DNA of 64,000 bases from an uncultured Gammaproteobacteria bacterium (GTDB taxonomy: Bacteria > Patescibacteriota > Patescibacteriia > Buchananbacterales > UBA6539), in NCBI GenBank assembly GCA_964535715.1, contig CAZHUO010000002.1:16916-80915 (forward strand), in the 5' to 3' direction. Shown here one piece after another: positions 5,683 to 31,521 of the stretch (position 1 is the stretch's first letter; each line of letters begins with the position of its first letter). The translations under genes and the position numbers were made by a program. Under the pieces are notes generated by a model. It searched no databases and was not told the origin of the DNA. It worked only from the letters and a program-made list of their open reading frames with translations.

Positions 5683-5706
5683 AGCCCGCCATTGGCGGCT
5701 TTTTTG
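5683..5706 (+). terminator. Intrinsic terminator
   Basis: AGCCCGCC-att-GGCGGCT followed by a T-run (5700-5705). Confidence 0.7.
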
Positions 5707-14308: not shown

Positions 14309-14484
14309 GTAGTATTAATATGTAAATTATTATTAAATCCTAAACTCTAAATCCTAAATCCTAAATTCCAATTCTCCAAACGTTTGGAATTTATAATTTG
14401 TTATTTAGAATTTATTCGCCGAAGGCGAATCGCCGCCATTGGCGGGCAAGCGCCTACGGCGGAGATATTAGGATTTAAAATTTC

Positions 14485-15216
14485 TTATCGGCCTTCTTTT
14501 TTATCAAACTCTTTATTTTGGATTTCAACCAGTGTCGCTTTCGGCACAGTATCAAATAATTCAATGACGTCTTTATTTATCATCCGAATACAGCCATGGG
14601 AAGCCGGCTCGCCGATAAGGCCTTCCTCGTTAGTTCCATGAATAAATATGCCCCTTTGAGCGGAATTATCATTTATTCCTTTTTCCAAACCCTCAAGCGC
14701 TAAAAGCCTGGTAGTCATTAAATCACTAGGTGCTTGGACGTGCTCGGTATATATTGTAGTTTTGCCTTTTTTGCTTTGTTTTTCAAAAACAGTCCCTAAC
14801 TCTGCATTGTCGCCGATTTTAGCAGATATGCGGTGAGTTCCAAAAGGCGTTTTATTGCTATTATTTTTATTGCTAATACCTTTGGCAGCGGTTGAAATAT
14901 TATATGATTTGACAATTTGGTTATCTTTTACAAGAAGCATTTCCTGACGTTCAGGGTTAATGACTATGGCGAATTCTTCGGGTTTTAAATTGAAGTTGCT
15001 GGTTAATTTTTCTACGCTTTCCTTGATTTCTTCCCAGATTTGCTCCGGCGTTCTTTCTTGCTCTTTTTGTTCTGCGTCAGCTGATTTTAAAGAAAGCAGT
15101 TCTTTGGCAGCTAAAGCGCCAAAAAAGGCCTGTTTTAAAAATTCACGACGAGTTGGCTTGTTATTTTTTTCAGTTTTAGATTCTTCCGTTTCCGGATTAA
15201 ATGTTTCTTTTTCCAT
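14485..15216 (-). CDS. L,D-transpeptidase (YkuD family) with a Tat-like signal
   Basis: [15 protein letters not shown]. Catalytic [23 protein letters not shown]. Confidence 0.85.
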
Positions 15217-15236
15217 AAGAAATAATGTAATTTATT

Positions 15237-15585
15237 GGCGACGTAGGGCGAGAGTCCCGCACCTATTTTACTCATCAATCATTTTCAAGATTAATTTTTT
15301 CTACAGTATAAAATAAATTATTTAACCTAAACAGTGATCAGTAAAATAGGTGCGGGATCTAGTTAAGCCGCTACGACGCAGGTTTAATTAATGAATCTTA
15401 TCGTGAAAAGGGAGCCATCAAAGGGTGAAATACCCGAAAGCGCTCCGTCGCCAAAGCGGTACTTATCCAGTTTTGACGCGTCAACGACTTGTCCCGATTA
15501 ATCCTTCGCCTTTGGCGGAGTGAAAAATCTTAGATCCCGTCTTATTCATATCTAATTATAAAGCGGGACTCCGTGGTTAATACCC
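15237..15585. mobile_element. 349-bp GC-rich structured non-coding insertion with a 6-bp TTTATT target duplication (MITE-like / mobile ncRNA candidate)
   Basis: The string ATAATGTAATTTATTAAATATATT-TGG is contiguous at 16122-16148. Here it is split after TTTATT (15231-15236) and resumes with TTTATT (15586-15591). Subterminal IR GAGTCCCGC / GCGGGACTC. An 18-bp stem at 15255-15272 / 15340-15357. Confidence 0.5.
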
Positions 15586-15600
15586 TTTATTAAATATATT

Positions 15601-15765
15601 TGGTCGGGCTGGGGAGATTCGAACTCCCGACCTCCCCGCACTAATGTCCGCGAATTGGCATTTTTGAAATTTAAAGTTAGATTAGCGCGAACACCGCCTG
15701 CGGCTGGTATTTCAAGAGATGAGACAAGATAATAGACATGGTGCGGGGCAGGCATCATCCCGAAC
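15601..15765 (-). pseudogene. Disrupted tRNA-Pro remnant (3' part only, interrupted by a 119-bp insert)
   Basis: 15601-15633 is identical to the CCA, acceptor, T arm and variable loop of the intact tRNA. 15753-15765 (catcatcccgaac) is a mutated anticodon stem/loop. No 5' half is present. Confidence 0.7.
15634..15752. repeat. 119-bp IR-flanked insert at the variable-loop/anticodon-stem junction of the tRNA remnant
   Basis: CCCCGCAC (15634-15641) and GTGCGGGG (15741-15748). The same CCCCGCACTAAT word occurs at 5270-5281. Confidence 0.55.
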
Positions 15766-15790
15766 TTAAGTAAAGCAATTTTTAATTCTC

Positions 15791-15847
15791 TCGGGCTGGG
15801 GAGATTCGAACTCCCGACCTCATCGTCCCGAACGATGCGCGCTAGCC
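15791..15847 (-). pseudogene. tRNA-Pro 3' fragment (D-loop to acceptor, no CCA)
   Basis: 57 of 57 identical to 16149-16205 of the intact tRNA. It diverges on both sides. Confidence 0.8.
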
Positions 15848-16123
15848 CCCGCCAGAGGCGGGTCGGCCTTTGGCGGAAGCTGCTCTAATAATTATATTAC
15901 GAACTTGTCTTCCAAATCCACTTTTGTAAAATTTTTCTCTCATAATAGCATCCTGTTCGCATAAGTATTTTTCAAAATATAATAATATTAGATGACCATT
16001 CTCACGTGTCCATTTGTTCGATTTCTGATTATGTTGTTTTAATCTGTCTTCTGGATTAATTTTTGAGTAACCGACGTATATCTTTCCATTTTTTATACTT
16101 TTTAAAAAATATACATAAAACAT
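15842..16123 (-). CDS. GIY-YIG nuclease family protein
   Basis: MFYVYFLKSIKNGKIYVGYS...RLKQHN...REKFYKS. The stop TAG (15842-15844) lies inside the tRNA fragment. The GC-hairpin-encoded tail is AASAKGRPASGGG. Confidence 0.75.
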   Translation of the reverse strand: MFYVYFLKSIKNGKIYVGYSKINPEDRLKQHNQKSNKWTRENGHLILLYFEKYLCEQDAIMREKFYKSGFGRQVRNIIIRAASAKGRPASGGG

Positions 16124-16145
16124 AATGTAATTTATTAAATATATT

Positions 16146-16222
16146 TGGTCGGGCTGGGGAGATTCGAACTCCCGACCTCATCGTCCCGAACGATGCGCGC
16201 TAGCCAGCTGCGCTACAGCCCG
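16146..16222 (-). tRNA. tRNA-Pro (anticodon CGG), CCA encoded
   Basis: CGGGCTG-TA-GCGC-AGCTGGCTA-GCGC-G-CATCG-TTCGGGA-CGATG-AGGTC-GGGAG-TTCGAAT-CTCCC-CAGCCCG-A-CCA folds as a canonical 77-nt cloverleaf. Confidence 0.9.
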
Positions 16223-16311
16223 ATAAATAGCGATTAACCAATAACGGTTAACAGTCAATTATTATAGTTTATATTCTTTTTAGTATAAAATCAAGTTTAA
16301 GCCAAAAAGAT

Positions 16312-30988: not shown

Positions 30989-31007
30989 GGGTTAAAATGA
31001 GGACATA

Positions 31008-31210
31008 TTGTCATTCTGAATTTATTACTGCTTTGTCATCCTGAATTCATTTCAGGATCCAGTAAAGCCTAGAGTGACAAGTCTAGAAAAAAAGCACCCC
31101 CTTTGTCATCCTGAAATTGGTTCAGGATCTGGAAAAGTCTAGAAAGCACCTCCTTGTCATTTCGAGCGACTCACCGAAGCCTAAAAGGCGGAGGTGAGGA
31201 GTCGAGAAAT
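31008..31210 (+). repeat. Array of four TTGTCAT(C/T)(C/T)(C/T)GA(A/G) hairpin repeats upstream of the GIY-YIG gene
   Basis: Copies at 31008, 31033, 31103 and 31154. Hairpins ATCCTGAA-n5-TTCAGGAT occur twice. TTTCGAGCGACTCACC...GGTGAGGAGTCGAGAAA also forms a hairpin. Confidence 0.75.
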
Positions 31211-31224
31211 CCCACACGTAAATT

Positions 31225-31521
31225 ATGCAAGAAAAAGAATACTATACATATATCATGATGAACAGGTGGAACACGGTTTCTTATGTCGGAATAAGCGGCG
31301 ATCTTTCCTTTAGGGTTTGGCAGCACAAAGAAAAGGTAAATGAAGGTTTTACTAAAAAATACAACATCAATAAGTTAGTTTATTATGAAACCTATGATAA
31401 TCCCGATGACGCCATTGTCAGAGAAAAACAGTTGAAACGGTGGAACAGAAAGAAAAAGGTTGATTTAATAAAAAAAGAAAATCCTGAATTTAAGGACTTA
31501 TCGGATGGTTGGGAGGTGTGA
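31225..31521 (+). CDS. GIY-YIG nuclease family protein
   Basis: YYTYIMMNRWNTVSYVGISGDLSFRVWQHK...AIVREKQLKRWNRKKK. Confidence 0.8.
   Translation: MQEKEYYTYIMMNRWNTVSYVGISGDLSFRVWQHKEKVNEGFTKKYNINKLVYYETYDNPDDAIVREKQLKRWNRKKKVDLIKKENPEFKDLSDGWEV

Follow-up and report, generated by a model that had tools for sequence, protein, structure and literature searches.

The window analysed here, a 64,000 nucleotide (nt) stretch of contig CAZHUO010000002.1, carries on its minus strand a small open reading frame (ORF) of 93 amino acids (aa) that encodes a GIY-YIG nuclease domain and lies between an intact tRNA-Pro gene and a fragment of that gene. We think it reasonably likely that this ORF is the nuclease gene of a mobile, homing-type cassette living inside tRNA transcription units, the parts of which would be a GIY-YIG gene of approximately 80 aa encoding a catalytic domain only, a 30 nt double-hairpin module (H) and a partial copy of the host tRNA. 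A preliminary description of this DNA had proposed a free-standing GIY-YIG nuclease wedged precisely between the tRNA and its fragment, and both the match to the Pfam family PF01541 and the exactness of the junctions bear this out. The sequence features that it listed all hold at the positions given. The window locus is a typical, slightly decayed member of its family, not a unique local invention. Its central parts are as follows.

16146..16222, minus strand: intact tRNA-Pro(CGG) gene, CCA encoded (ARAGORN; Rfam tRNA, 65.2 bits)
15887..16123, minus strand: GIY-YIG catalytic core, residues 1–79 (Pfam PF01541)
15878..15886, minus strand: 5′ side remnant of the tRNA D-stem/loop, 9 nt, agaGCAGCT (codons 80–82, R-A-A)
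15848..15877, minus strand: H, 2 × 15 nt, codons 83–92 (SAKGRPASGG), in the disabled tRNA copy at tRNA position 17/18
15791..15847, minus strand: fragment B, tRNA-Pro positions 18–73, 57/57 identical to the intact gene

Relatives at tRNA genes and at empty sites

A phmmer search of 1.84 billion representative proteins returned 1217 clusters at E≤1e-3, and a scan of GTDB with one genome per species confirmed 378 relatives. The best 80 of these 378, together with earlier loci and the window, were used for the architecture counts; a few are redundant copies of the same contig, and a partial tRNA copy was counted at an exact match of at least 9 nt. Almost all of the ORFs were intact (82/86). An intact tRNA gene on the same strand abuts the ORF at 65 of 82 loci, a partial copy of the abutting tRNA lies on the other side of the ORF at 55/82, GC-rich hairpins are found within 150 nt of the ORF at 61/82, and all three features occur together at 53/82. 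As same-strand tRNA genes occur once per 14.7 kb in these loci, chance abutment is expected at about 0.9% or 0.7%. The hosts comprise 25 tRNA species, and the carriers are mostly Patescibacteria, with further cases in Bacteroidota, Omnitrophota, Planctomycetota, Verrucomicrobiota and others; cultivable carriers include the Maribacter or Muriicola strains of L069 and L079. Looking for the gene in other tRNA contexts had been suggested in the preliminary description, and its near-uniform siting at tRNA genes strengthens the central idea. Related ORFs share the amino-acid family of their tRNA (Pro/Pro, Val/Val, Arg/Arg), as would be expected if tRNA homology guides insertion.

In layout A, that of the window, the order is intact tRNA, ORF, H and 3′ fragment, and in 12 loci the distance from the called tRNA end to the ATG is −1 to 3 nt. 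Most loci have layout B, in which a 5′ fragment with H is followed by the ORF and then by the intact tRNA, which the ORF overlaps by exactly 9 nt in 16 loci and by 22 nt in 8; the 9 nt overlap means that the stop codon is the TAG of U8-A9-G10, and the 22 nt overlap that it is a TAG of the D-loop. Other relatives stop at a TGA within a GGCTGA variant of the hairpin. The window's own stop, TAG at 15844->15842, had been read as borrowed from the CTAG of a tRNA D-loop; it does lie in the CTAG of the D-loop sequence GGCTAGCG, inside fragment B, a 57 nt perfect copy of the 3′ part of the tRNA. The borrowing is thus real, but it is not peculiar to this locus: given the 16 relatives with the U8-A9-G10 stop and the 8 with the D-loop stop, this GIY-YIG family as a rule ends its ORF at a stop codon supplied by tRNA sequence.

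Evidence that the parts move as a unit comes from recA, which adjoins tRNA-Pro(GGG) in several Microgenomates genomes. The cassette is found there in three arrangements, namely layout A (loci L001, L010 and L014), layout B between recA and the tRNA (L028 and L030), and layout B with the tRNA and ORF inverted relative to recA and bacA (L015). When empty sites were sought with RecA as the anchor (84–86% identical), L100, L101 and L102 proved to have no ORF, no H and no tRNA fragment at the recA-linked tRNA-Pro(GGG), and L099 is also empty. Because all three are either present or absent at this locus, the ORF, H and the fragment come and go together. This presence/absence polymorphism was observed at the recA-linked tRNA-Pro(GGG) locus. 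A second indication is given by L091, the closest relative of the window, which has the same succession of intact tRNA and fragments B and C at tRNA-Val. The fragment beside H differs there from the resident tRNA-Val, and the further fragment and its flank are identical to the resident; as its fragment B is unlike the resident tRNA, part of the tRNA-like DNA has travelled with the cassette.

Some loci hold tandem cassette parts. A second copy of the ORF starts directly after the tRNA fragment in L009 (2240–2355), a second H-bearing 5′ fragment stands between the ORF and the intact tRNA in L019 and L025, and the whole 3′ end of the tRNA is repeated with its flank in L022 (~2651), which suggests repeated events at one site. 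A subfamily of small GIY-YIG ORFs (L064, L074 and L081; also L050) has no tRNA nearby. In these loci an inverted repeat of ~13 nt brackets the ORF, with one arm just upstream of the ATG and the other in the last codons (in L074, tcccgtacgaaat ... atttcgtacggga). The window itself contains a second, distant small GIY-YIG ORF at 31225–31521 on the plus strand (98 aa, 30–35% identical, tblastn E ~1e-5). It adjoins no tRNA, and three to four copies of another hairpin repeat lie upstream of it (TTGTCATCCTGAA..TTCAGGATC; gtcatttcgagcgac..gagtcgagaaatc), so that the region 31000–31521 forms a second pairing of nuclease and hairpins in this genome.

The catalytic domain and the double hairpin

The ORF runs from 16123 to 15842 on the minus strand and matches PF01541 over residues 1–72 (56.1 bits against a cut-off of 22.6, E=4.8e-15). 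In an alignment of 81 relatives, Y5, Y16, G18, R27, H31, R62, E63, K67 and G71 are invariant or near-invariant; the catalytic-type residues Y5, Y16, R27, H31 and E63, all of which the window ORF has, show full or at least 96% conservation, whereas no counterpart of the distal Asn of I-TevI was identified. The AF2 model has a pLDDT of 87.9 overall and above 90 in the core. Its top Foldseek matches are 1ZG2, Slx1 (7CQ2 and 6SEH; TM 0.6, rmsd 2.1 Å), 1YWL and I-TevI (1LN0), at weak E-values of at least 0.0075, and the fold is the GIY-YIG alpha/beta fold; sequence matches to the UPF0213 proteins 1YWL and 1ZG2 have E-values of 0.007–0.06. Judged by its conserved residues and predicted fold, the ORF is a genuine GIY-YIG catalytic-domain gene. 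The NCBIfam group I intron endonuclease model matches the catalytic part only, at 21.8 bits against a cut-off of 56, and a separate DNA-binding domain of the I-TevI/SegB type was not found, the conserved protein ending at approximately residue 79.

What follows that residue is of a different nature. The two hairpins of H are TCCGCC-AAA-GGCCGA (15877->15863), which has one C.C mismatch, and CCCGCC-TCT-GGCGGG (15862->15848), and the last Gly codon and the TAG of the ORF fall within the 57 nt tRNA-identical stretch. The preliminary description had regarded the last codons as CCGCC-NNN-GGCGG hairpins and not as protein-like sequence, and had advised locating the end of the conserved domain against homologues. 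The comparison upholds this: across the 81 relatives protein conservation stops at approximately residue 79, before the hairpin-encoded residues, and the last 10 residues have a pLDDT of 46. On this evidence the tail of the 93 aa ORF is read-through translation of a conserved nucleic-acid module. Having no stop codon of its own, the ORF reads into whatever follows, so that the 13 aa tail is a by-product.

The additional proposal that the C-terminus had been recently remodelled did not survive. The genomes of the closest homologues (61–69% identical) hold the same tail, of the form 'SAKGG..' (SAKGGPAYGGG, SAKGGPASGGGSAQGWGS and SAKGGSAFG), because they carry the same 30 nt module, and the double hairpin is conserved as an inherited part of the cassette. 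Homologues do, then, share the tail, which tells against a recent origin, but always at tRNAs, and not in the unrelated contexts that the preliminary description had contemplated. The closest homologue loci each consist of an intact tRNA (Pro-GGG, Val-CAC or Val-TAC), an ATG 1–7 nt further on, the ORF, H and then a 3′ fragment of that tRNA beginning at the GG of the D-loop or at the T-loop. Between loci H is 80–97% identical, compared with 59–72% for the coding cores and 32–59% for third codon positions.

When defined by position alone, as DNA that separates two adjoining stretches of the intact tRNA sequence, H proves to be cleanly inserted, with no tRNA base lost or duplicated. The inserts are of three lengths.

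30 nt: 15 loci
19 nt: 10 loci
15 nt: 3 loci

The insertion sites lie at tRNA position 17/18 in 8 loci and 12/13 in 5, and also at 15/16, 22/23, 8/9 and the T-loop in some. A two-hairpin alignment of 18 position-defined modules is 99.1% paired, 6 of its 12 pairs show compensatory double changes, and this pairing was matched by none of 500 shuffles; the sole unpaired cell of helix 1 is that of the window itself. Only one of 216 cells is a U.G pair, too few to separate an RNA-level from a DNA-level structure. Read instead as a single long 30 nt palindrome, H showed pairing and covariation no better than shuffles. Within 200 nt of the ORFs, double-hairpin modules occur at ~44 times the density seen in the rest of these loci (105 near ORFs versus 12 elsewhere), and the few outliers lie near other tRNAs. 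In the window there is no second copy of H, apart from a half-module in region X (described below). The gene linked to H is the GIY-YIG gene and not an HUH/Y1 transposase.

H was also considered as a terminator and rejected: it has no T-run, and no terminator-like site was found at 15848–15877, in contrast to a true terminator at 5686. The latter (5686–5698, plus strand) is a canonical CCGCC-ATT-GGCGG followed by a T-run. Three GC-rich mini-hairpins are situated just past the stop codon of the L,D-transpeptidase gene (14410–14462, minus strand: tCCGCC-GTA-GGCGc, CCGCC-AAT-GGCGG and ATTCGCC-TTC-GGCGAAT). Such GC-rich hairpins are therefore also ordinary 3′ elements in this AT-rich genome. Hairpin modules without a nuclease ORF were seen in two other loci. 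L091 has two ORF-less tRNA-Leu 3′ fragments after an intact tRNA-Leu (240–390), with a hairpin pair in the T-loop of each, and L032 has a solo double hairpin 70 nt upstream of tRNA-Gly (~3879).

Organization of the window locus

Further features of the locus are as follows.

16261..16289, minus strand: promoter-like site TTTATA-17-TATAAT, ~40 nt upstream of the tRNA (10/12 consensus matches; a consensus match alone)
16122..16145, minus strand: native spacer copy 1, aatatatttaataaattacattat, the last two bases of which are the AT of the GIY-YIG ORF's ATG
15637..15790, minus strand: spacer between fragments B and C, with 'tcgggatg' starting 26 nt after B
15586..15636, minus strand: fragment C, from the T-arm to CCA (15601–15636), plus 15 nt of downstream spacer
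15237..15585, no strand assigned: region X, 349 nt, splitting the second spacer copy and flanked by a 6 nt direct repeat, AATAAA
15214..15236, minus strand: native spacer copy 3, aataaattacattatttctt, and the ATG of the L,D-transpeptidase gene

Read along the minus strand, the promoter-like site, the tRNA-Pro gene, 22 nt of AT-rich spacer and the 93 aa ORF follow one another, and no terminator-like site was found on that strand from the tRNA to 15126. The tRNA-Pro(CGG) at 16146..16222 is the working copy, and the site at 16289–16261 probably drives a transcript of both tRNA and ORF. As there is no room for a promoter of its own and no terminator after the tRNA, the ORF is most likely transcribed from the tRNA promoter.

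The ATG of the ORF (16123–16121) stands 22 nt past the CCA, and its AT is the end of a leader repeat, as the preliminary description had noted: the 15-mer ATAATGTAATTTATT occurs in exactly two copies, at 16122–16136 and 15222–15236, with none expected from 100 shuffles. The copy at 15222–15236 forms the leader of the adjacent L,D-transpeptidase ORF (15216->14485, ATG at 15216, YkuD domain). From this the preliminary description had concluded that the nuclease ORF borrowed its start from its neighbour. The AT is indeed shared with the repeat, but the start MFYVYFLKS is the conserved N-terminus of the GIY-YIG ORF family, and because that N-terminus is the family's own, only the overlapping AT is 'borrowed'. 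The first 15 nt of spacer copy 1 equal the flank of fragment C, and its last 15 nt equal the neighbour's leader. The spacer part of fragment C is a truncated second copy of the native spacer, and together with the tRNA sequence before it forms a 49 nt exact repeat (15586–15634 = 16131–16179), again with none expected by chance. On the simplest reading of these repeats, the ancestral order would have been tRNA, ~29 nt and the neighbour gene, and nuclease-bearing DNA would have been inserted with a duplication spanning the T-arm to 24 nt past the CCA. The apparent borrowing of the neighbour's leader would then arise because the insertion duplicated the T-arm and the 24 nt native spacer, with the ORF beginning at the junction.

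The disabled tRNA copy starts with the 9 nt agaGCAGCT, where the intact tRNA has agcGCAGCT, continues through H into fragment B, and ends in 'gag' where the intact tRNA has CCA. Relatives are arranged likewise; in L007, for example, the order is TTAGCTCAGTT, H, GGCTAGAGC. With its hairpin (15791–15861), fragment B scores 30.6 bits in Rfam, just above the cut-off of 29. It does not look like a functional tRNA: non-standard pairs number 3 of 7 in the acceptor stem and one in the D-stem, and ARAGORN calls no tRNA there.

The DNA beyond fragment B is less orderly. The 'tcgggatg' of the B–C spacer corresponds, with one mismatch, to tRNA positions 1–7, and the spacer, which contains a decayed hairpin, cagccgcaggcgg, pairs with its own 3′ part in a long stem. 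Spacer and fragment C together (15601–15766, minus strand) fold with z = −2.3 and match the tmRNA model at 16.7 bits against a cut-off of 47. The fold resembles an acceptor/T-arm minihelix, in which the 5′ 'cgggatg' pairs with the 3′ 'cagcccg' and a ~125 nt insert with a long stem stands where the D and anticodon arms would be; this stretch may represent an earlier tRNA-Pro copy that was disrupted. Region X has an imperfect hairpin with 49 nt arms (15255–15357) and one H-like half, tccgccaaaggcg (15507–15519); no similarity to it was found elsewhere in the window or in the fetched loci, and it could be another small insertion. No decayed second nuclease gene was detected by tblastn in region X or the B–C spacer. 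Rfam searches of H, X and the spacer gave only tRNAs, chance-level miRNA-type matches on the X hairpin and the 16.7 bit tmRNA match. Schemes of nested insertion and of staggered cutting were considered for fragment B, the spacer, C and X; each fits in part and none fully.

The repeats at this locus apparently break assemblies. The identical neighbour gene was found only on short Logan contigs (five, L086–L090), all of which end 44–55 nt upstream of the L,D-transpeptidase ATG, inside an arm of the X hairpin; strain polymorphism there is possible. A metagenome scan with tRNA positions 27–65 recovered only plain tRNA-Pro(CGG) genes of other organisms.

Proposed homing, competing explanations and known systems

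If the cassette is of the homing type, its nuclease gene would be transcribed from the tRNA promoter as a tRNA trailer, and in relatives with the ATG 1–4 nt past the discriminator base, 3′ processing of the tRNA would leave a leaderless mRNA. The nuclease would cut the DNA of tRNA genes in or close to the conserved D/T-loop boxes, as SegB of phage T4 does with the T-loop box. Repair of the break would then use a filled allele as template, so that the cassette is copied, and the flanking tRNA sequences would serve as homology arms. Because the duplication keeps one tRNA copy functional, the insertion would be harmless. In the spare tRNA copy the D- or T-loop box is interrupted by H, and the intact tRNA is still beside the ORF; by breaking up the conserved box, H might render the spare copy uncuttable and a poorer partner for recombination that deletes the cassette. 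The two most likely roles of H are protection from re-cutting and service as the enzyme's own recognition site. Both the cutting itself and the role of H are inferred.

Several observations weigh against such a cassette. The intact tRNA, its presumed target, stays next to every copy. In the window, H carries a mismatch and leaves a 57 nt perfect repeat unshortened, so that a role in preventing deletion fails here. The protein is a catalytic domain only, without the DNA-binding domain that confers specificity on I-TevI and SegB, and to our knowledge neither nuclease activity nor a cut site is known for any member of this GIY-YIG family. No relatives were found in the viral contigs of IMG/VR, and a phage origin is rejected. 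The search for an empty allele of the window locus itself was negative, and fragment C, the B–C spacer and region X need extra events. Lastly, the ORFs track tRNA amino-acid family, and the L007–L009 loci are syntenic across species, which would fit long vertical inheritance too.

That last point leads to an alternative that we regard as unlikely, although it would account for part of the data, in which the ORF is a domesticated host gene, a cellular factor acting in DNA repair or in the metabolism of tRNA genes or RNA, whose co-transcription with tRNAs is deliberate. The fragments of tRNA would then be by-products of local tandem duplication, and H a stabilizer or processing signal of the shared transcript. 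The high proportion of intact ORFs, the conservation of the catalytic residues, the tracking of tRNA family by ORF lineages and the synteny of some loci would all be natural for such a gene; the UPF0213 proteins, the nearest relatives of solved structure, are encoded by ordinary chromosomal genes, and CCGCC-NNN-GGCGG hairpins occur as 3′ elements of ordinary genes in the window. A host gene accords poorly, however, with a patchy distribution in which orthologous sites are empty, with three layouts at one orthologous locus and with 25 different tRNA hosts. Nor does an RNA signal suit H, which lacks a T-run, is not terminator-like, and precedes the ORF in one layout but lies within the ORF's 3′ end in the other; the position of H is inconstant in the mRNA and constant instead in the tRNA fragment.

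A somewhat less probable view makes H itself the real mobile unit, a miniature palindromic element that enters tRNA-like loops precisely and is tolerated only in non-functional copies, with the nuclease gene as its usual neighbour or trans-acting mobilizer, as REP elements have the RAYT transposase. The clean insertions at positions 8/9, 12/13, 17/18, 22/23 and the T-loop, with target bases neither duplicated nor lost, would be expected of such an element, as would the extra hairpins inside fragments of L002, L010, L076 and L091, the ORF-less H-bearing fragments near tRNA-Leu in L091, the solo H near tRNA-Gly in L032, and the different fragment positions of H in L012 and L013, the ORFs of which are 90% identical. 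Yet the modules are almost confined to the vicinity of the ORFs (the 105 to 12 count above), none is present at empty sites or elsewhere in the window, and the partial tRNA duplication and precise ORF–tRNA junctions would be left unexplained. We give very little credence to the remaining candidate, a remnant of an integrase-mediated island or prophage in the 3′ end of tRNA-Pro, with the fragments as old att sites and the nuclease as leftover cargo. Direct repeats of the tRNA 3′ part flank the insert, including the 49 nt exact repeat, and are the classical signature of tRNA-targeted integration, but the whole insert measures ~500 nt and holds no integrase or other cargo between the repeats. The ORFs there are only the GIY-YIG ORF and a 68 aa ORF (15552–15758) that overlaps fragment C and the spacer, the latter ORF without a domain search. 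The same nucleotide-precise ORF–tRNA junctions recur in more than 60 unrelated loci, the fragments begin in the D-loop with H, and half of these loci have the ORF upstream of the tRNA with a 5′ fragment, as in layout B, which is not an integrase product.

The homing-type cassette remains the explanation we prefer. We are tempted by a bolder version of it, which we hold tentatively and consider rather doubtful, in which these loci represent a minimal, hitherto undescribed class of bacterial mobile element made of a ~80-residue GIY-YIG protein with a catalytic domain only and the 30 nt H. Such an element would combine precise insertion at the universally conserved D- or T-loop boxes of tRNA genes, with target bases neither duplicated nor lost, rescue of the host by partial tRNA duplication, parasitic tRNA-based expression and recognition of DNA structure. 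Its mRNA would be leaderless after 3′ processing, its stop codon donated by U8-A9-G10 or the D-loop, and its enzyme would recognize the structure of the hairpin and not a long sequence.

If the cassette reading is true, the tRNA genes of many small-genome bacteria, Patescibacteria above all, host a compact selfish element that has gone unnoticed. No smaller homing-type nuclease system would then be known, which raises the question of how an 80 aa catalytic domain finds its target, and the cassette would be a natural example of gene-safe insertion via partial duplication of an RNA gene. There are practical consequences for annotation as well. The cassette makes tRNA pseudo-copies that pass detectors, such as fragment B (Rfam) and a disabled fragment in L004 (3285–3354) that ARAGORN calls as tRNA-Val, and disabled copies of this kind probably give rise to wrong tRNA annotations in such genomes. 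It also breaks short-read assemblies at tRNA loci and inflates protein predictions with hairpin-encoded tails.

A full-text literature search, in which few subscription journals were covered, turned up no account of small GIY-YIG genes joined to tRNA genes together with a partial duplication and a double hairpin, and a recent survey of Patescibacteria tRNA introns makes no mention of the cassette. The family therefore appears to be undescribed so far; an earlier description is possible.

Parts of the arrangement have counterparts in known systems. By sequence and fold the best matches are the UPF0213/YhbQ proteins (1YWL and 1ZG2) and the Slx1 domain, which are of the same size and likewise consist of a catalytic domain only. 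We know of no solved UPF0213 member that is tRNA-linked or mobile. Slx1 cuts branched and hairpin-like DNA, and the analogy suggests structure-specific cutting of H by the GIY-YIG enzyme. REP/REPIN elements with RAYT, and the IS200/IS605 elements, also tie short GC-rich hairpins to one nuclease or transposase gene with no target duplication. Their enzymes are HUH/Y1 transposases, whereas that of the cassette is a GIY-YIG protein, and H, unlike REP-type hairpins, is 30 nt long, specific to tRNA loops and not scattered through the genome. Integrase-type islands and prophages share the tRNA target, the restored intact tRNA and the displaced 3′ fragment as a direct repeat. They differ in that the cassette has no integrase, an insert of 0.3–0.5 kb, 5′ duplications too and a break point in the D-loop that carries a hairpin insert.

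A close precedent is SegB, a free-standing GIY-YIG homing endonuclease encoded in the tRNA gene cluster of phage T4, which recognizes the T-loop box GGTTCRANTCC and cuts tRNA genes at the 3′ end, the tRNA genes of the carrier genome itself remaining cuttable (PMC2330249). An intact target tRNA beside the nuclease gene can thus be tolerated. Like the window ORF, SegB is a GIY-YIG protein encoded by a free-standing gene among tRNA genes, and its cut site at the tRNA 3′ end is where the ORF of layout A sits. SegB differs in being a phage protein with a separate DNA-binding region, compared with the ~80 aa core found here in cellular genomes, and it has no partial tRNA duplication, hairpin module or ORF–tRNA overlap; nor was any sequence relationship beyond the superfamily found (Pfam SegE-type model, E=0.057).

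The duplication has its nearest parallel in fungal mitochondria, where free-standing endonuclease genes are found with atp6 or cob on one side and a partial duplicate of its C-terminal part on the other (PMC6279837). In both cases an endonuclease ORF separates an intact gene from a displaced partial copy and the host gene still works, although the fungal elements occupy protein-coding genes in organelles and encode larger endonucleases. A mobile element in Allomyces atp6 was reportedly described by Paquin et al. in 1994, and Allomyces mitochondrial DNA contains GC-rich 'double hairpin elements'. Unlike the fungal case, the cassette has a bacterial tRNA as its host, comes with both 5′ and 3′ duplications, and carries a conserved hairpin that marks the disabled copy.

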